From the IMG/VR virus record IMGVR_UViG_3300030104_001475, positions 1-34,965 of that record: 34,965 nucleotides of DNA; one strand, 5' to 3'. Both the position numbers and the translations under genes were made by a program. The notes beneath the pieces were generated by a model. The model ran no database searches, was not told the DNA's origin, and saw only the letters and a list, made by a program, of their open reading frames with translations. This DNA comes from a virus (lineage: Duplodnaviria > Caudoviricetes). Positions 13,052 through 27,301 of this stretch are shown here, piece after piece (position 1 is the first letter of the stretch; each line of letters opens with the position of its first letter).

Positions 13052-14512
13052 TCAGGCAAAATATACCACTTTTGCATTATTCCACATATTTTTGTTTAGT
13101 GCCATTACTAAACAATCAACCATATCGTCGTGTTTAGCAGATGGAAACTTAACTAATTGCTGTAAAAATTCCTCATTCCACTTCCCCCTTAATAAACTTA
13201 CCCTTCCTGACTCTAGTGCTGCAGAAATATCCTGAACTCTGGCAACCTTATCTTTTGATGGTGGTTTATCCTCTCTTACATTTAATCCTGTTTCTTTTTG
13301 TAGTGTTTGCACAATAGACTTTCCTGATGCTTTTGGCTCTACATATATTCTACTTCTATTGCTATATCCATTTTTTTGTACCCATTGAGGTATAAATTTT
13401 ACTAATTCAGGAAATTCCTTGTGAACATTTACACAATCTATAATTTGCCACTTATTATTTTTAAATATATATGCTAATAATGCCGAAGGGTCATTTTTTT
13501 CATTTGATGTATATGCAGGGTCTATAACAAAATCTACAACTATTTGCTCTCCAATATCAATCATTTTATTTTGGTCAATTCTCAACCATTCTGCTTTTAT
13601 CATTCCTGAATTAAGAGGGGTTGGGGTTTGCATTAATTGTCCTGCGTAACCATAACTACCTAATGCTTGTTTATAATCATCAAGTATTGTCCTGCTAAAT
13701 CTATCTGTCCAAAACAATCCATCTTTGTCGTAATTTTCCTCTAAAGATTTTGGCTTAATATCATCTGATAATTCTGCAGGTATACAGATATGCTTATATT
13801 TTAATCTGCTTTCGCTTCCATATAATAAAAACCCACTTAAATCGTTATCGTGTATTCTTTGCATAATAACAATCCTAATTCCTGTTAATGGATTATTAAG
13901 TCTTGAGTAAAATGTTGTTCTATACCATTCGTTAGCATTTTCTCTTTCTATTTCAGATGCTGCATTTTGGGGAGATACAGGGTCATCAACAATTAAAAAA
14001 TCTCCCCCCTGCCCTGTAACTGTTCCTCCTACCGAAGTCGCTCTCCTAACCCCCAAAAAATTATTCTCGTATCTTGATTTTAGATTTTGGTCTTTTTTTA
14101 TGTGAAATAATTCTCCCCATCTATCTTTAAACCATTGTGAGTTTATTATATCTCTGCTTCTTGTAGAATGTTCTATTGAAAGTTCGGCAGAATATGATGC
14201 TGTTATAAATCTGAATTTTGGATTCTTAATCCAACTCCAAACAGGAAACATAACTGTAACTAAAAGTGATTTTGTAGAACGAAAGGGTATATTTATAACT
14301 ATATCTTTCGTTTTAGGCTCGTTGGCTATTATTCGTTCTGCTTCTTTTTGTAGAATATCACATAGATATTTATGATGCCAATTAGTAGACAACTCAATAC
14401 TAGGTTCAACGATATGCCAAGCCTTTTTAAAGAACTCATAGAATGATAATTCGCATAATTTTTTTTCTAATGCAAATTTAAGTGCTTCATCAGTTGTTTT
14501 CAATGTCGTCAA
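13052..14512 (-). CDS. terL: Terminase large subunit
   Basis: Walker A-like IPFRSTKS, Walker B LIVDD, MQRIH coupling motif, nuclease IDPA, and C-terminal FPSAKHDDMVD. Confidence 0.95.
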   Translation of the reverse strand: MTTLKTTDEALKFALEKKLCELSFYEFFKKAWHIVEPSIELSTNWHHKYLCDILQKEAERIIANEPKTKDIVINIPFRSTKSLLVTVMFPVWSWIKNPKFRFITASYSAELSIEHSTRSRDIINSQWFKDRWGELFHIKKDQNLKSRYENNFLGVRRATSVGGTVTGQGGDFLIVDDPVSPQNAASEIERENANEWYRTTFYSRLNNPLTGIRIVIMQRIHDNDLSGFLLYGSESRLKYKHICIPAELSDDIKPKSLEENYDKDGLFWTDRFSRTILDDYKQALGSYGYAGQLMQTPTPLNSGMIKAEWLRIDQNKMIDIGEQIVVDFVIDPAYTSNEKNDPSALLAYIFKNNKWQIIDCVNVHKEFPELVKFIPQWVQKNGYSNRSRIYVEPKASGKSIVQTLQKETGLNVREDKPPSKDKVARVQDISAALESGRVSLLRGKWNEEFLQQLVKFPSAKHDDMVDCLVMALNKNMWNNAKVVYFA

Positions 14513-14894
14513 GTTTGGCTCTCAACTCCTCAATACTCACATCATCATTTAATTCTATTTTAACTTTCTTTGTTGTATTATCGTTTATCTCTGATGATGA
14601 TAATTTTGGAACTGTATAGTTAAGTAGTTTTGAAACTGCATTTATATATGCTTCAGGGTTTTGGTCAAACAATTTATCTAAAGCCATTCTTATTTTAGTA
14701 GAATGTCCTTCTAATGCCCAAGTCAAAGCATTTCTGCTAATTTTATTAACTACAACATTATTTTTTTCTCCCTTTTTCCTGCCTTCTGTATTTATTTTAC
14801 CACCATTTGGAAAATATTTTTCAGTAGAATTTTTATATGGGTTTAATTTGTTGAGGTTACTTTCTCTCAACTTGTGTCTTTTATCCTCACTCAT
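14490..14894 (-). CDS. terS: Terminase small subunit
   Basis: 134 aa, overlaps the terL start. GRKKGEKN motif and YTVPKL. Confidence 0.7.
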   Translation of the reverse strand: MSEDKRHKLRESNLNKLNPYKNSTEKYFPNGGKINTEGRKKGEKNNVVVNKISRNALTWALEGHSTKIRMALDKLFDQNPEAYINAVSKLLNYTVPKLSSSEINDNTTKKVKIELNDDVSIEELRAKLDDIENN

Positions 14895-15226
14895 AATTTT
14901 AATTTTTTAACTAATGCAGATAATCCGTCAATTTGTTTTAATTTTTTTATAGCCCAATTAATACCACTCGTTCCTCCCCAACAATCCCACATTAAGCCTC
15001 CACACCCTTCATCATAAGGAACATCTTTATGTTGTTGATGTCTTTTAAAAGATGCCATTCTAGCAATCGTATCTCTTGATAAATTTTCTCTATTTGCTAA
15101 TTGATTTGCTCTTTTTTTACCTACATCAGTCCCACAAGACCCCCAACCATTTTCATCAACCCATTTTAATGCTCTTTTTGCATTATTAGTTGCAGATTGA
15201 GGGTAATCATTATATGTTTCAGCCAT
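14891..15226 (-). CDS. Conserved phage protein (WGG-motif domain, head-associated candidate)
   Basis: CGTDVGKKRANQLA...LSRDTIARMASF...WGG motif, recurrent in phage head modules. Confidence 0.6.
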   Translation of the reverse strand: MAETYNDYPQSATNNAKRALKWVDENGWGSCGTDVGKKRANQLANRENLSRDTIARMASFKRHQQHKDVPYDEGCGGLMWDCWGGTSGINWAIKKLKQIDGLSALVKKLKL

Positions 15227-15227
15227 A

Positions 15228-15614
15228 TTATAATTTTTTTATAGAGTCAGTTAATTTATCTATATACTCATCTAACTCCTCATCTAACATTGATGCTGTT
15301 AGTTCATCATACGATTCCTCTAACTCCTCTGTTTCAATATCCTCAATTTTATAAGTATATAATATGGTCATTGATTCTCCCTCATCTGACTCTACCTCAA
15401 CAATAAGTTCTCCATTAGTATGAAGTTCCTCCATTTGTTCCTCTGTAAAGTTGTAAGAAAAGTCATAATCGCTTTCCTCATTATATTTTGGTTTTATAGT
15501 TTCCTCTAAATACTCTCCCTGATTTGCTAATTGACAATCCTCTAAAGTTTCGTATTCACACTCTCCTGTTTCTCCCCATTTATATTTTCCGTTTTCACAT
15601 TCCTCGCAAGGCAT
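15228..15614 (-). CDS. Highly acidic hypothetical protein with N-terminal Cys motif
   Basis: MPCEEC..KYKWG..GEC..C followed by a Glu/Asp-rich region. Confidence 0.75.
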   Translation of the reverse strand: MPCEECENGKYKWGETGECEYETLEDCQLANQGEYLEETIKPKYNEESDYDFSYNFTEEQMEELHTNGELIVEVESDEGESMTILYTYKIEDIETEELEESYDELTASMLDEELDEYIDKLTDSIKKL

Positions 15615-15642
15615 AATTTCTATTTTTTAAATTTTACATTTT

Positions 15643-16854: not shown

Positions 16855-17979
16855 TTATCTTATATCGTCTGCATAATGATACAAACCTGTATAGTCATTG
16901 TAGACTGCGTTTTCCTCTCGTACTATATCATCTCTTTCATCTATATAAATACTGCAATTGTCGCAGATATATTCTTCTTCTACTTCGCTATATCTTATTT
17001 CATCCTCGCTATATCTTTCTCCACAACAATCGCAAATATAGCCACCGCCTTCTGTAAAACCTCCGCCAGTGTCCTCTAAAATATATTCTTGCGAATCCTC
17101 GTTTGCATCAAATTTTATATTTTGGCTTAATTCTGTCCCCCATCTAAAAGAATCCATATAAGGATAATGCTCTAAGTCAAAAAATGTATTTTGATTTATT
17201 TGTATTGAAAAAGATGGATACGAGGCAGAATTAAAAAAGTTTAGTTTTTCTTTATCTCCTTTAATGGCTTTAATATGTGTAAAAGAATAACAATCTAATT
17301 TTTTTAGTTTTAATGCTCTTTTTATTTTATGATATAATTTAGCCTGTAATTCTGACTGATTAGAATTTTGAAACTCATTACTTATATAAATTCTATCTAG
17401 AAAATATTTCTTTTCAAAACTTCCATCTGTAAAAGTTTTCATATTGTTAGTTTTTGTCCATAAAATTGCTCTCGCAACTACTGACTTTCCAACTTTTAAC
17501 CCTACAATTTGAGCCTTTGTATCTATAAAATTGCTGTAAATCTCAAAATAAGTTGCAGGTTTTTTGCTCATACAGGAGCCGTTAGAATTATAAATATAAT
17601 TTGTATTTTCTTGACTATAAAAGCCTTTCAAATCATCCTCAATAAATAAATCAACATTTTTACAATAGTTTATTCGTAATTGTTTATCAATATCGCTTGA
17701 AATTGTCGCTTGTTTTTCTCCCTCATTTATGAACATTTTAGATAATATTTTGCTTATGCTTGTACTTGTAAAATATTTTTTTCGCTGTTCTGCTGTCCCT
17801 TTTATTTTAGTGCCTGTATATTCTAGTAAAGAATTAATTTTTTCTTGCTTGATATAAGACACTTTTAAGGGGTTGTCAATGCTAGTATCTATAAATTTAA
17901 TACTATTGAAATTTTCGCTTTTAGTAGCGTAAATTGATAAATATTCTATCGCTTTTTTAATTGTGTTTTGTGTTTTCAT
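16855..17979 (-). CDS. Early hypothetical protein with SCM / RAILW / DRIY / PYMD motifs and a C-terminal Zn ribbon
   Basis: 374 aa. CDCC...CDNC at the C-terminus. Confidence 0.85.
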   Translation of the reverse strand: MKTQNTIKKAIEYLSIYATKSENFNSIKFIDTSIDNPLKVSYIKQEKINSLLEYTGTKIKGTAEQRKKYFTSTSISKILSKMFINEGEKQATISSDIDKQLRINYCKNVDLFIEDDLKGFYSQENTNYIYNSNGSCMSKKPATYFEIYSNFIDTKAQIVGLKVGKSVVARAILWTKTNNMKTFTDGSFEKKYFLDRIYISNEFQNSNQSELQAKLYHKIKRALKLKKLDCYSFTHIKAIKGDKEKLNFFNSASYPSFSIQINQNTFFDLEHYPYMDSFRWGTELSQNIKFDANEDSQEYILEDTGGGFTEGGGYICDCCGERYSEDEIRYSEVEEEYICDNCSIYIDERDDIVREENAVYNDYTGLYHYADDIR

Positions 17980-18004
17980 TTTTTTAGTAGTTAGATTAAT
18001 AAAA

Positions 18005-18637: not shown

Positions 18638-18718
18638 AAAAAAATAACCAACAGCGACTAACTGTTGGCTATCTTACTAACTAACTAAAAACAAGTGTAT
18701 TATGAAAACACTTTTCTA
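18638..18718 (-). ncRNA. Candidate 3'-UTR antisense sRNA 1 with intrinsic terminator
   Basis: Contains GUGUUUUCAU and UUUUUAGUUAGUUAGU, complementary to early-gene leaders and starts. Hairpin at 18644-18672 followed by a U-tract. Confidence 0.5.
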
Positions 18719-20253: not shown

Positions 20254-20828
20254 TTTCTTAAACTTTCTCCCTTAAAAAACACAACCAAACAAAGCCTTTT
20301 AATCCTGTCATATATTCTTTCTCCATATCTTTCTTTAATAGCACTAGCATCAAGATTAGATGTTAATAAAAGTGTTTTTAAATCATCCTCTGCCTCAAAA
20401 ATAGCGTTCTCTACAGCGTCTATTTTAGTTCCATAATCATTCACTATTTCCTCTGTGCCTATATCATCTATAACTATGTAGGGAGAAACAAACTCTTTAA
20501 CTGTATGTAGTTTTCTTGCTGCGATAGGTTTTAAAATTTTACCTTTTTTAGCGTTAAAAATCAAAGGTAGAACTCCTGTGATTATAACAGACTTACCTCT
20601 ACCACAATTTCCAATTAAAAACAACCCCTTACCTTGAGTGTCAGAAAGCCAACTTGCAACAGTATCGTATTCAGGCAAGTGCTTATACTCTGTAACGGTT
20701 TGGTCTACTAATAAAAAAGCCTCTTTAAATAATGCTAGGCACTCCTCATAAGTTCCAAAACTATATCGCTTATAACCTCTTACCTTTATATGTGTAGCGT
20801 TCTTTAATGTCTCTTGTAGTGTTCTCAT
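20250..20828 (-). CDS. DnaC/IstB-like AAA+ ATPase (helicase loader)
   Basis: Walker A GNCGRGKS, Walker B IDDIGTE, TSNL, and YGERIYDR..G.SLR. Confidence 0.88.
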   Translation of the reverse strand: MRTLQETLKNATHIKVRGYKRYSFGTYEECLALFKEAFLLVDQTVTEYKHLPEYDTVASWLSDTQGKGLFLIGNCGRGKSVIITGVLPLIFNAKKGKILKPIAARKLHTVKEFVSPYIVIDDIGTEEIVNDYGTKIDAVENAIFEAEDDLKTLLLTSNLDASAIKERYGERIYDRIKRLCLVVFFKGESLRK

Positions 20829-20829
20829 A

Positions 20830-21456
20830 TTAAAATGTTGTATAATCTTTATTGTCTAATATCTTTCTATTAGTTTTGTCTTTAGGAGCATTTCTTTCCC
20901 AATTTCTAACTGCAGCCTTCCAATCTTTCATAGAGTTTTTTCCAACCTTCCAACCATTGCTTTGGTAAAAATCAAAAAACTTTAAACTATCAACCCTATT
21001 GTTTCTTTCGGTACAATAAACTTCTACTTCATTTACAGTAGGCTTTTTAAACCTTTTAACTTTGACAGGGTTTCTTATCTCGCCCTCAAAACCTGCAACA
21101 TCTACAGGGCTTATACCTTCTATGTTATAAACATCATATTTGTCTAGCAGTTTAATTACTGCCTGATGAGGTCTTGAATTTTCATTAAGCGTTCCATATT
21201 GAAAGTCAATAAACTTTGGTATAAACCATTTATTACCCTTATCAAATATCTTTATCTGCTCTGCGAACACCTTACAAGCCTCTTTCTCGCTTATCTTACT
21301 GCCTATTCTAATTGAAGCAACCTCAAAATCTGTGTCCCATATTCCTGCGTGGTTGCAATCATCTAATATGTATAGCCATAATAGTTTAAACTTTGCAGGT
21401 AGGTTTCTTATAAAACCTTTTTTCCATTTGTCTGTGTCTGTAAATCTTTTTGCCAT
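20830..21456 (-). CDS. Replication initiator protein
   Basis: N-terminal HTH-like domain. C-terminal FKKPT..FFDFY.SNGWKVGKNSMKDWKAA. Lies directly upstream of the loader. Confidence 0.8.
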   Translation of the reverse strand: MAKRFTDTDKWKKGFIRNLPAKFKLLWLYILDDCNHAGIWDTDFEVASIRIGSKISEKEACKVFAEQIKIFDKGNKWFIPKFIDFQYGTLNENSRPHQAVIKLLDKYDVYNIEGISPVDVAGFEGEIRNPVKVKRFKKPTVNEVEVYCTERNNRVDSLKFFDFYQSNGWKVGKNSMKDWKAAVRNWERNAPKDKTNRKILDNKDYTTF

Positions 21457-21816: not shown

Positions 21817-22917
21817 TTATTTGTTTTTGTTATAATCAATTAAGTATTGGTTTACTATCTGCTTGTGCTTTGTTGAGCCATCATAACTATCTGATATATC
21901 CTCATAATCCTCATCATCTAAAAAAGAATCATTCCACGCTTTTTCCTCATAATTCTCTGCAGAAAGTATATCACTATTACAATCAGGACAGAACTTATAG
22001 CCCTCAAACGAACTTTCTTTTAGCGTTTTGCATCCACAGTAATAACAAGTCTGATTGCCCTCATCATCATTTATAACCTCAACATCCTTTCCGTACCAAA
22101 AGTCCTCGTCTGCTCCACTCCAATCTCCCCATTTGCTATTGTAATTATAATTGCCATAACTATGTGTAAATCTATACTCAAACTTATTACAGCCTAATTC
22201 AGATATAAGTTTCTCCATCATTTGTCTGCAGTTATCTGCGTGTTCAAATTCTACAACCTCCTCATCTGAATGTGGAGCATAGTACCCACAACTCATATTA
22301 GCAACACATACGCCAATACCATTTTCTGCAAGTTGCCCTACATCTGTAATAGCCCCTGATGTTTCTGAATATCCGTGATGTTTAAGTATAGGGGCAATAG
22401 TCTTGCTAAACTTTTTACTGAATAGTTTGCCTGATATATTATTTACAAAATCTTTATTACCCCTTCTATCCCCTTGTAAACAATATCCTACATCTTTAAA
22501 CCAATCCATATCTGCTGCTCTGCTACCAACACAGCCAACCTCCTCTGAATGAAAGAAGGCACATTTAATTTTATCAAATTTCATTAGCATTTCTAGTGCT
22601 AACCATATACCTACCTTGTCATCTCCACCTACACCTACCTGCTTACCTGTTTCTGCATTAAATGCAAACAAGCAACCATCATCATCAAATACTTTGAAAA
22701 AGTCGTGTATGTCGTGAACTGTGTCTGTGTGAGCCACAACACAAGGGTATATATCTGACTCCCCTTTTGTTATATAAATATTGTTGTCTTTTACTTTTAC
22801 ATCTGCTTCAGGCACATTCTGTCTGCAAAAGTTAAATATATGTGCTATCATATTGAACTCATTACCACTTGTGGTTTGAACTGATAATAAATCAATAAGC
22901 AATTCCTTTTTAGTCAT
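21817..22917 (-). CDS. M20/M28-like zinc peptidase with C-terminal Zn ribbon and acidic tail
   Basis: HTDTVH, GGDDKVG, EEVG, DRRG and GYYAPHS..E metal-ligand motifs. CYYC...CPDC. Confidence 0.85.
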   Translation of the reverse strand: MTKKELLIDLLSVQTTSGNEFNMIAHIFNFCRQNVPEADVKVKDNNIYITKGESDIYPCVVAHTDTVHDIHDFFKVFDDDGCLFAFNAETGKQVGVGGDDKVGIWLALEMLMKFDKIKCAFFHSEEVGCVGSRAADMDWFKDVGYCLQGDRRGNKDFVNNISGKLFSKKFSKTIAPILKHHGYSETSGAITDVGQLAENGIGVCVANMSCGYYAPHSDEEVVEFEHADNCRQMMEKLISELGCNKFEYRFTHSYGNYNYNSKWGDWSGADEDFWYGKDVEVINDDEGNQTCYYCGCKTLKESSFEGYKFCPDCNSDILSAENYEEKAWNDSFLDDEDYEDISDSYDGSTKHKQIVNQYLIDYNKNK

Positions 22918-22984
22918 TAGCGTTTTCTTTTAGTTAGTAGTTAGTTAGTTGAATTAAAGAGTTATCTAACCCTTAAATTCTATA

Positions 22985-23308: not shown

Positions 23309-23566
23309 TTAAAATGGTAAATCATCATCATCTTTAGATGTTTTAGCATCTGCTGTTACCTCTTTTGGTGGCTCGTAAGTATTCTCATAAGCATAGTGAG
23401 TTGCTCCTTTTTCAGAAGGTTCTCTCCTTTCTGCTATAGTTATATTACACCAACCTTTTTTTGCTATTTTTTGCAAATCATCTACCTTAAAACTTGCGTT
23501 AAATAAATCTCCATATTGAGTAGTAACTTTTTTAATACTACTTGCTACATAATTTTTGTCTGCCAT
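23309..23566 (-). CDS. Single-stranded DNA-binding protein (small phage type)
   Basis: Acidic C-terminal DDDDLPF tail. Lies in the recombination module. Confidence 0.7.
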   Translation of the reverse strand: MADKNYVASSIKKVTTQYGDLFNASFKVDDLQKIAKKGWCNITIAERREPSEKGATHYAYENTYEPPKEVTADAKTSKDDDDLPF

Positions 23567-24000
23567 TTTTCTTTATTTTTAATTTTTAATTTATAATCAT
23601 TTTTCTTTTCTATTAAATCTTGTAGTCTAACCGACAACTCATCCATTTTTCTTTCCACCTCTTTTACTTCGTGAATATAGTAATTATCGTCTATCATTAA
23701 AAGGCTTTCTATTTCCTCATAATTTGCCTTATAAGACTTTAAAATCTTTACAAAGATATCGTGTTGCTGCATATTATGTATTATTGTTGCGTGATTTTTA
23801 TTAAGAATATACGCTATATCGTGATAGGTTAAGCGAAATATATTTCTTAAAAGACCACTATAAAGCCTTCTTGCGTCTACAACTTTTCTAATTCTGCTTT
23901 TGCCTTGCACAACAGACCAAGCCAAATTATATCTTTTGCATATTTCAGATTTAATTTTTTCATCTCTCTCTTTTGTGAACTCTAATTTATATCTATTCAT
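23545..24000 (-). CDS. DnaA C-terminal (domain IV)-like HTH protein with coiled coil
   Basis: KSRIRKVVDARR...TYHDIAYILNKNHATIIH. Confidence 0.75.
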   Translation of the reverse strand: MNRYKLEFTKERDEKIKSEICKRYNLAWSVVQGKSRIRKVVDARRLYSGLLRNIFRLTYHDIAYILNKNHATIIHNMQQHDIFVKILKSYKANYEEIESLLMIDDNYYIHEVKEVERKMDELSVRLQDLIEKKNDYKLKIKNKEKWQTKIM

Positions 24001-25020: not shown

Positions 25021-25314
25021 TTAGTTTAATATTGATTCTATAAAGTTCTTAAGCCTAGAATCAAAGCCTTTTTTATTTTTAATATCATTAAGCCTGTAAT
25101 TAACTATAGTAGCCATCTTAACCCCTCCATCTGATTTTTTATATCTAGTTGGGACTTCGGTTGGTATAGATGTTATGTCGTGCCCTTGCTTTCTTAATCT
25201 ATGTATAATGCCTGACAATCTGTATGCCCCATACTCGTTAATAGCCTCTTTTTGTGTTAGTTTTCTACCATCTTTTAAGTGTTGTAGAATATCACTCGTT
25301 TGTGTTTTAGTCAT
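25021..25314 (-). CDS. Winged-helix DNA-binding protein (HTH_39-like)
   Basis: ILQHL..G..LT..EA...GAYRLSGIIHRLRKQG. Confidence 0.75.
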   Translation of the reverse strand: MTKTQTSDILQHLKDGRKLTQKEAINEYGAYRLSGIIHRLRKQGHDITSIPTEVPTRYKKSDGGVKMATIVNYRLNDIKNKKGFDSRLKNFIESILN

Positions 25315-25456
25315 TTTGAAATAGTTTAGTTAATTTTCTTTTAAATATTTTGCTGTCGTATGTCTTGCCTGAATATTTAAAGTAATCACAAAGATTAATT
25401 GTATTACTTTTGTTTTGTGTTTTTTTTATATAATCTTTTATAAGACTATCTCTCAT
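25307..25456 (-). CDS. 49-aa basic hypothetical protein (MRDSLIKDY...)
   Basis: Overlaps both neighbours by a few nt. Not in the ORF track. Confidence 0.55.
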   Translation of the reverse strand: MRDSLIKDYIKKTQNKSNTINLCDYFKYSGKTYDSKIFKRKLTKLFQND

Positions 25457-25661: not shown

Positions 25662-25706
25662 AATAGTTAGTGTTTTAGTTAATAGTTAGTTAGTTAAAAT
25701 TCTATG

Positions 25707-25870: not shown

Positions 25871-26956
25871 TTAAAAATAGTGGGTTAGTCTAGCAACCTG
25901 ACCACTTTCTTTATCGTGTAAAAATGCTTCACACGCTTTAGATGCTCCTGTAAAACCTTTTCTTGAATGCCAACTATCTGCTGATGAAGGACTTCTCATA
26001 TATTCTACAGTAACACCTATAAAATCTTTAGCGTCTAGCCATTTATGTTTTACTTTGTGATGTAAATGATGTAAATACCAATACCTAAATTTAGTTTCAC
26101 TCCACATTTTAGGTCGTTCTTGTGCCATTAATAGTGGGAGTTTATCCATTTTCGCCCCATCTCCGTGCTCTAAACCTATTAAATTTGCTCCATATTGATA
26201 GTATTTTCTATGTGCTACACTTATATCAAATTGAACATCATCTGCTTTTCTGAACCACGCTTTTAATGTGTGTGCTAAATGAAATCCACTTTGATAATCG
26301 TGATTACTCATAGAATGTAAAACATCAACAGGGGCTATCTCTCTTAACATCTCTATTACCCTAACATATAACATTAAAGCAATCTGATAATGTTCCCACC
26401 ATTTACCATCAGTATCTTGATGTGTTCCTTTGGTTGTAGTATTATATACATTGTCTATATGCAAAACATCATTACCAATACAGAATAATATTTTTTCTAC
26501 ATCAAACCCTTTAGATTTATCTATTAATCCCTGAACACCCTCTAAAACCCTCATAACAGCAGTTTCACAATTATAAGACTCTCCTGTTTCTAATTCATTA
26601 GCATATTTACCTATATGTATATCAGCAGGATTTATAACTAAAAGATGATTTCCTTTTTTTCTTTTAATAGATTTATATTCAGGAGAATATCCTTCTATAA
26701 ATTTATTAACGCTATCAAAAATTTGTTGGCTATCTAAACCATAATCCTCTTTAGTTACTATAGAAAATCTGTACTCTCCATTAGCAGACTGCCAATGTTT
26801 TACAGAAACAACATCTTTTTTTTCAATGCCTCTTTCAAGTAAATGTTGGTCTAAAGCAGAATTATCATTTATATTGTCTAAAGACTTTGCTCTATGCTGA
26901 TAAATTAAATTTTCCTCATCAGTAGATAATCTTAACCTCCTTCCGTATTTTTTCAT
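25871..26956 (-). CDS. Calcineurin-like metallophosphoesterase (probably leaderless; ATG start at 26956)
   Basis: DIHIG, GND, SNHD, HGD and HLHH motifs. TAAATTTG box at 26960-26967. Confidence 0.85.
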   Translation of the reverse strand: MKKYGRRLRLSTDEENLIYQHRAKSLDNINDNSALDQHLLERGIEKKDVVSVKHWQSANGEYRFSIVTKEDYGLDSQQIFDSVNKFIEGYSPEYKSIKRKKGNHLLVINPADIHIGKYANELETGESYNCETAVMRVLEGVQGLIDKSKGFDVEKILFCIGNDVLHIDNVYNTTTKGTHQDTDGKWWEHYQIALMLYVRVIEMLREIAPVDVLHSMSNHDYQSGFHLAHTLKAWFRKADDVQFDISVAHRKYYQYGANLIGLEHGDGAKMDKLPLLMAQERPKMWSETKFRYWYLHHLHHKVKHKWLDAKDFIGVTVEYMRSPSSADSWHSRKGFTGASKACEAFLHDKESGQVARLTHYF

Positions 26957-26985
26957 ATTCAAATTTATTAAAAAAACACCTTCGC

Positions 26986-27064
26986 AAAAAGAAAGGGTAG
27001 AAAGTTATTAACCGTCTACCCTTAACTACTAACTATCCAATCTGAAAACACAATCAAGAAAGGA
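26986..27064 (-). ncRNA. Candidate stand-alone antisense sRNA 2 (~80 nt)
   Basis: Own promoter at 27069-27097, no ORF, terminator stem 26993-27023 plus U-tract. Complementary to early-gene leaders. Confidence 0.6.
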
Positions 27065-27068
27065 ACTA

Positions 27069-27097
27069 CAAAAGTAATAAATTATTTTAAATATCAA
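27069..27097 (-). promoter_or_regulatory. Promoter for sRNA 2: TTG-N18-TACTTTTG
   Basis: Perfect TAnnTTTG box. Confidence 0.6.
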
Positions 27098-27100
27098 TGA

Positions 27101-27301
27101 TTATTTCTTTGATTTTGCTGCGTCAGCAATACCCTGACCTAGCACAAGTGCCATTACAGAATATAATATTTGTTCTGTTTGTAAAGGGTCTAATCCAAAT
27201 GTTTCGTGAAGGAATGTTACTATAACAGCAATAACTGTGTACCAAAACTTCTTTGACTTTACCATTTGTCCAATTAGGAATTGTTCTAAAAACTTTTTCA
27301 T
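27101..27301 (-). CDS. Holin (two TM helices)
   Basis: KSKKFW + TM ... TM + GQGIAD. Follows the endolysin. Confidence 0.75.
   Translation of the reverse strand: MKKFLEQFLIGQMVKSKKFWYTVIAVIVTFLHETFGLDPLQTEQILYSVMALVLGQGIADAAKSKK

Follow-up and report, generated by a model that had tools for sequence, protein, structure and literature searches.

The locus between the holin-like gene and the phosphoesterase gene of this phage raises a simple question: does a short stretch with no open reading frame encode an RNA, and if so, on what does that RNA act? The window analysed here, 34,965 bp long, is a complete phage genome with direct terminal repeats, and the minus strand carries all of its genes. 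Judging from sequence comparisons across this uncultured phage family, we consider it probable that a trans-acting small RNA (sRNA) of about 78 nt keeps a constant group of the phage's early genes from being translated, and most likely serves to reduce early expression in the course of infection.

We infer a Bacteroidota host, because TAnnTTTG boxes lie ahead of the operons (consensus in the available part of PMC6847099), the leaders carry no SD sequence and the matches point to Flavobacterium phages, which make up 28 of the 30 annotated records matching the gene next to the unit. Throughout, the early set is the block 25661-16855 (HTH proteins, a peptidase, a DnaC-like loader and small unknowns) and the late set comprises the virion and lysis genes (Clp-type protease, portal, terminase, tape measure and M15 endolysin), labels that rest on gene content and not on a time course. 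Encoded proteins include wHTH, Cro/C1-type and DnaA-domain-IV types. Among the 50 ORFs scanned none matched an integrase, partition or antirepressor gene, and most early genes are without known function. The unit and its neighbours are composed as follows.

27101..27301, minus strand: holin-like upstream gene (66 aa), which precedes the unit in 62 of 66 pattern matches
27097-27095, minus strand: possible -33 TTG of the sRNA promoter, from sequence
27069..27076, minus strand: -7 promoter box TACTTTTG of Bacteroidota type, from sequence; box in 65 of 66 pattern matches
26986..27064, minus strand: predicted small RNA of about 78-79 nt, its 5' end set by promoter spacing
27043..27053, minus strand: seed 1 (UUGUGUUUUCA), nearly invariant in the alignment of the window's family and part of predicted duplexes
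27022..27036, minus strand: seed 2 (AUAGUUAGUAGUUAA), complementary to a UAACUA-type leader address
26986..27023, minus strand: intrinsic terminator (hairpin plus U tract), which by its position also closes the lysis operon
26960..26967, minus strand: second -7 box, just before the 361-aa gene, from sequence; in 46 distinct relatives
25871..26956, minus strand: downstream gene, 361-aa phosphoesterase / 'DNA repair exonuclease' (phrog_704, E 3e-70)

The original prediction placed a promoter box, an ORF-free stretch and a terminator between holin and phosphoesterase, and all three are there, with the box at 27076-27069. The ORF-free stretch is rich in U and G, and the 78-nt strand forms a terminator hairpin followed by a U tail (z -2.9, 0/200 shuffles). 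The box begins 25 nt past the holin-like stop and no hairpin is seen in between. Given that transcription in F. johnsoniae starts 4-5 nt downstream of the box (consensus TANNTTTG; PMC6847099, in the part available), the same spacing would let the RNA run from 27064 or 27063 to about 26986. An ORF check of the RNA strand returned neither an ATG nor an open frame. The upstream gene owes its name to its position after the M15 endolysin, and has no Pfam or PHROG match. Judging by its sequence, the second -7 box would give the 361-aa gene a promoter of its own; it lies 3 nt from the ATG, below the 4-5 nt of the consensus. In 40 sequences of the window's family the terminator comprises 14 consensus pairs, 8 of them with double-sided (compensatory) changes, and pairing is seen in 555 of 560 cells; beyond the terminator no consensus structure emerges. 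The 22 nt that precede it have a predicted mean unpaired probability of 0.39-0.93. Seed 1 is complementary either to a start codon with the first codons or to AAAACAC leader words. Seed 2 is kept within class A and differs in the other classes, where it changes together with the leaders. A small protein starting MKT on the opposite strand could explain the conserved TGTTTTCAT block, and of 42 distinct elements 18 do have an ATG there. In the other 24 the codon is TTG, CTG, CAG, AAG, TAG, CCG or TCG, the ATG frames span 4 to 115 codons, and the window has CTG and then a stop after 11 codons; with start codon and frame length so variable we rejected this frame, and such a protein is scarcely credible.

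The unit of box, ORF-free stretch and terminator is real, and it is conserved in relatives: 136 of 149 related contigs have a box, 68-89 nt (median 74) and a terminator upstream of the 361-aa gene. These contigs, which are not independent genomes and hold 77 distinct element sequences with the window's included, come from 164 loci found by two protein-anchored and two pattern scans, after removal of 8 duplicates and of 7 loci with little upstream DNA or no anchor gene. Twelve of them have no unit upstream of the 361-aa gene and one is cut off. An unanchored scan for the two seeds retrieved 66 viral contigs, 65 with the 361-aa gene downstream and the last ending 38 nt on. In distant classes the layout is kept and the seeds are different; a 5' hairpin is predicted in 11 of 16 class representatives, with unrelated hairpin sequences. 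The exact seed pattern is absent from 185,579 GTDB genomes, and in metagenome-assembled genomes (MAGs) the neighbouring protein was met on two short contigs, L166, which has a class I unit, and L167, which has none. On the latter, part of G001, the holin-like gene is about 60 nt from the phosphoesterase, box and terminator are absent, and a remnant GTAGTTAGTAAGTT is all that is left. The cultured Flavobacterium phage morran9-1 has only the 361-aa gene in common, and no equivalent unit was found in it.

Blind scanning of the contigs without a unit at this place located one elsewhere in a single phage, L142/G002, which a perfect-match pattern had missed. L149, L158, L073 and L076 had no clear unit, L165 and L110 gave putative terminator-ended candidates, and L136 offered too few genes. 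Within G002, a distant phage, the unit ranked second in the scan; it combines a promoter-like region, two seeds and a terminator, it sits downstream of the 361-aa gene, and its seeds match that phage's own repeated leaders. This unit (G002:C1, about 26570-26710, plus strand, inside L142/L195) has a hairpin between the two seeds, and about ten early genes of the same phage have AACTAACTAAAAACAAAAC-type leaders in common. Class D units (e.g. L097, L102, L025) carry TAACTAC at the RNA 5' end, predicted to pair with their own GTAGTT seed, possibly a built-in off state.

Does the RNA pair with early leaders more than chance would allow? All of the pairing matches listed in the original prediction are present in the sequence: Watson-Crick matches of 11 nt (17978-17968) and 10 nt (17993-17984) to the 374-aa gene, 13 nt to the peptidase leader (22943-22931), 9 nt twice to the 71-aa leader (25690-25682 and 25671-25663), 9 nt within a gapped site at the wHTH gene (25308-25300), and 10 nt between the terminator loop and the 18235 gene (18261-18252). 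Against shuffled RNA in the window genome alone, the expected early excess is seen in the number of matches of at least 9 nt (in 5 of 22 early start windows and 1 of 30 late ones, p 0.024; early-late difference p 0.012) and fails in mean match length (p 0.14). Five A-run-rich windows elsewhere in the genome score equally well. The pairing signal of this single genome is thus modestly above chance. Because plain duplex energies in it are dominated by G-rich coding windows, we adopted seed-length, accessibility-aware and comparative tests. The A-run windows bear on a reading in which the unit would be no more than a terminator for the late operon, or else an attenuating leader ahead of the 361-aa gene, its complementarity being a by-product of U-rich meeting A-rich sequence; the unit does close the lysis operon, and A-run windows score well by chance in a single genome.

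Comparison across relatives gives a far stronger signal. From 108 loci with at least 3 kb downstream, 58 remained after dereplication and were assigned by eye to 16 seed classes (L015 was put in class B by hand), which are related by descent and not phylogenetically independent. The pairing matrix took, for each of 27 RNAs, the 30 nt that directly precede the terminator and set them against start windows (-35 to +12) of 28 genomes with at least 11 early ORFs; starts were called as the first ATG, and most of the pairing energies are without accessibility. After double-centring, RNAs paired with the early starts of their own class 2.6 kcal/mol more strongly than expected (null sd 0.34; 0 of 20,000 permutations), which bears out the proposal of a stand-alone RNA complementary to an address shared by early leaders. 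In the same matrix neither late starts (+0.11, p 0.70) nor early coding windows (+0.24, p 0.87) showed an own-class effect. The cognate RNA ranks first in 10 of the 16 classes; in classes A3, A4, F and K it is only 3rd to 7th, and A3, A4 and K pair with few of their own early starts (0-6%). With the classes lumped into seven groups, a step taken after the matrix had been seen, the cognate RNA is first in 7 of 7 (1 of 5040 permutations). Class C illustrates the change of both partners: its RNAs have UAGUUUAGUU, AAACAU and AGUCG, and its leaders read AACUAAUGUUUAACUAAACGACUAACU. A blind scan of 43 genomes identified the unit as the best coding-strand partner of early starts in 22 and among the top three in 29, and never outside the best 2.3% of positions.

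At a cut-off of -14 kcal/mol, picked after the distribution was seen, about 21% of own-class early starts pair, compared with 9% of other-class early and 4% of late starts. The original prediction spoke of a whole early regulon; a subset of it holds, about a fifth of early starts pairing strongly, and the whole does not. This class-specific pairing at early starts, and not at late or coding windows, largely refutes the reading of the unit as terminator or attenuator only, as do the own box of the 361-aa gene, the lack of an alternative conserved structure and the G002 unit downstream of that gene; we regard it as very improbable. Equally improbable is a main role in shutting down translation in the host, by way of a motif generic to strong Bacteroidota leaders. 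Its seeds are complementary to A/C-rich unstructured leaders in general, but in a proxy that stands in for the true host (the Flavobacteriales MAG G001, 218 start regions on 19 stretches) 4% of starts pair at -14 kcal/mol or below, the same as for late starts and against 21% of own early ones, and TAACTA occurs in 3% of proxy host, 4% of late and 20% of early leaders.

Covariation by itself cannot separate a DNA site from RNA pairing. The shared words might accordingly be DNA operators for a phage HTH protein, and the unit an inverted operator beside the late terminator; the wHTH, Cro/C1-type and DnaA-domain-IV proteins of the phage would supply candidates. Yet the sites lie at start codons. 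Start regions, 10% of the sequence, hold 76 of 128 10-mers complementary to the RNA; pairing spans about -20 to +5 with a peak at -11 upstream of the AUG, and a promoter box is lacking in the vicinity of 164 of the 217 strongly paired starts. Complementary sites number 128 versus 18 of the same sense, partly an effect of composition. Among mismatches, the G-U compatible C>T change is in excess (108 versus 71 expected) and T>C is not (14 versus 16), and A>G, the second wobble class, shows no excess (31 versus 29), a point in favour of operators. The unit, moreover, has a promoter and a terminator at its ends and a 5' hairpin in most class representatives. Taken together, the positions of the sites and the mismatches in these sequences favour RNA pairing, and operators seem improbable. 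The pairing peak falls in the zone where adenines at -13/-12, -6 and -3 tune initiation in F. johnsoniae, as the available part of PMC6847099 describes.

Which genes would the RNA reach? The 48 start regions in the window were ranked with accessibility included, and orthologs were counted at -14 kcal/mol or below. The five best are:

25300..25342, minus strand: predicted target, wHTH start region, operon-internal; -18.9 kcal/mol; 20 of 25 orthologs
22904..22947, minus strand: predicted target, peptidase leader; -17.7 kcal/mol; 21 of 23 orthologs
20810..20855, minus strand: predicted target, DnaC-like helicase loader start region (phrog_3277); -17.2 kcal/mol; 14 of 16 orthologs
25663..25697, minus strand: predicted target, leader of the 71-aa gene, first of the early operon; -16.6 kcal/mol; 11 of 16 orthologs
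17968..17994, minus strand: predicted target, leader and start codon of the 374-aa gene, two collinear blocks; -14.9 kcal/mol; 4 of 4 orthologs

The same genes are strongest across relatives, and they lie 1.3-9 kb from the unit, in other transcription units. For four of the five targets that had been proposed (374-aa, peptidase, 71-aa and wHTH) pairing is conserved and, by sequence comparison across relatives, far beyond chance; the fifth, the terminator loop against the 76-aa product of the 18235 gene, did not hold. It shows no covariation (p 0.50 over 16 classes; 3189/5040 over 7 groups), binds at no more than -7.3 in a cofold calculation, which cannot model kissing loops, and pairs in just 1 of 5 orthologs, and we rejected it. 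The DnaC-like loader is a new candidate, absent from the original prediction. The first ORF after the 361-aa gene, of whatever family, pairs in 39 of 58 cases, and no named family was found for the 374-aa gene. In class C phages (L013:~14460-15620, L089) an in-frame TGA seems to divide the peptidase gene into ORFs of 107 and about 265 aa, perhaps a case of read-through or a broken gene. After the 374-aa gene, at 16854-16780 (minus strand), a further TAACTA-type leader stands ahead of only a very short ORF.

The window contains another anti-leader unit, a weaker one:

18638..18718, minus strand: 3' UTR of a 66-aa gene, with both seed-like blocks and its own strong terminator

Its predicted pairing partners are 31 of 243 early windows, 1 of 135 late windows and 17 of 250 coding windows; in the window the leaders of the 71-aa, peptidase and 374-aa genes are preferred. 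Of the 32 genomes shown, 12, all of class A, A2 or A3, retain it, the other rows having matched a different gene, and in classes C and D it is absent after the 66-aa gene. Since no promoter box is seen at 18718-18638, it would work either as a 3' fragment released by processing or by folding back on its own transcript, and would add a feedback exerted by the early transcripts.

Other repeated words occur in these genomes. At 18510-18455 (minus strand) three or more TGAAACTG(C/T) direct repeats are seen, possibly replication-origin iterons, and they change place between classes, lying between sRNA and 361-aa gene in L013 and L014 and after the 66-aa gene in L094-L109. Words of the GTTATTAAC type, which we take to resemble DnaA boxes, recur on the minus strand at 18344-18331 (14 nt complementary to the sRNA hairpin, ahead of the 18273 promoter), at 18261-18252 (the start of the transcript from that promoter) and at 31216-31190 (the loop of a late hairpin after the 193-aa gene); a DnaA domain-IV protein gene lies at 23548-24000 in the same phage.

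What would the RNA do, and when? We infer repression rather than activation, because the predicted targets are unstructured and because there is precedent: in Bacteroides, sRNA pairing at start regions represses mRNAs, as the accessible parts of the reports on GibS (PMC7366714) and FopS (PMC11697453) describe. In the mechanism that we propose, host sigma-ABfr would transcribe the predicted sRNA from its own promoter, and late read-through may add more of it, stopping at the same terminator. The RNA would then pair with initiation regions of operon-leading and replication-related early genes and occlude the ribosome, as for GibS and FopS, and could so serve the hand-over from early to late expression, like the T4 proteins RegA and RegB. 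A -33 TTG is present in 43 of 49 early promoters, in 37 of 55 sRNA promoters and in 0 of 23 late head-operon promoters, which have CGTAAA instead. Because the sRNA promoter is without this late motif, late timing of the sRNA is not supported by its promoter. The promoter of the capsid/Clp-protease operon (33982-33975, minus strand) has its -7 box 5 nt before the ATG and is likely leaderless; a CGTAAA/CGCAA motif, a candidate late-activator site, is conserved about 25-30 nt upstream.

By the same antisense mechanism, an sRNA produced from the onset of infection, or else in carrier cells, could instead silence the early genes of incoming kin and so provide class-specific immunity based on RNA alone, or superinfection exclusion. 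Its promoter, a host-type box without the late motif, agrees with this, and so do the diversification of leader addresses into 16 classes, the graded pairing of own-class early, other-class early and late starts, and the tree of the neighbouring gene, on which classes B and C fall among class A, suggesting address switches; in P1, too, C4 blocks ant expression for lysogeny (PMC8198154, in the part available). Against it, co-drift of seeds and leaders would also yield classes, the 50 ORFs scanned include no integrase or partition gene, and outside the phage contigs the exact seed pattern was missing from GTDB, with relatives on the two short MAG contigs only. Given that neither such a gene nor a prophage copy was found, early shut-off is preferred, and immunity against kin seems rather unlikely. 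Also doubtful is the idea of an RNA address code, in which a lineage-specific leader tag would be read by the promoter-driven sRNA and by the 3'-UTR paralog, and in which tag and reader would switch jointly from lineage to lineage, giving repressor-free kin immunity or a non-integrated carrier state together with early shut-off.

The preferred reading, translational turn-down of the phage's own early genes, has partial parallels. GibS and FopS are chromosomal sRNAs of B. thetaiotaomicron that regulate metabolic and PUL genes (PMC7366714, PMC11697453, as far as these sources are available). Like them, the RNA described here has a single-stranded seed region and a Rho-independent terminator, in our case by prediction; unlike them, it is phage-encoded and aimed at the phage's own early genes, and its seeds change with the targets between lineages. 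No Rfam match links it to the two, the presence of a FopS model in release 15 being uncertain. GcvB represses multiple targets through C/A-rich leader elements that enhance translation (PMC3879156, in part), and DapZ, a type I 3'-UTR sRNA, has its own promoter at an mRNA 3' end (PMC7821165, in part). As in the type I sRNAs of the DapZ and MicL class, the predicted promoter of our unit comes right after the upstream coding sequence, and the terminator is shared with the upstream gene. The seed of GcvB is G/U-rich. GcvB and DapZ differ in being Hfq-dependent, proteobacterial and directed at SD-led transporter mRNAs. Searching the window with Rfam 15, including C4, DapZ and GcvB, gave 0 matches above the gathering threshold; the best weak match, DapZ, reached 17.5 bits against a cut-off of 56 (E 1), and at such a score homology is not indicated. 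Among phage RNAs, the P4 CI RNA pairs with phage mRNA by short boxes and controls development. The C4 RNA of P1/P7 does likewise, but is encoded together with its icd-ant target in one operon and acts on an antirepressor (PMC8198154, available part), whereas here the unit is separate, has at least five distant predicted targets and no C4 Rfam match, and no repressor-antirepressor circuit is evident. T4 silences many early mRNAs post-transcriptionally via an initiation-region motif with RegB, a nuclease, and RegA, a repressor (PMC3014915, in part); those readers are proteins, and here an RNA would read the address. From the sequence, the unit resembles GibS/FopS and GcvB/DapZ in its probable working and appears to belong to no described family. 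Phage sRNAs of known function mostly have one antisense target or act on host genes (PMC12197685, available part). The original prediction knew of no such RNA in Bacteroidota phages, and our search of open papers, the 38 functionless sRNAs of Table S1 in PMC12197685 aside, likewise found no report of a Bacteroidota phage sRNA acting on several of the phage's own early genes.

If the preferred reading is true, the RNA would be a counterpart of T4 RegA/RegB that works through a co-evolving leader address, and would answer how phages of SD-less Bacteroidota switch early translation off. The 16 natural seed-leader classes would then be ready-made compensatory mutants, and could supply orthogonal translational switches for Bacteroidota.
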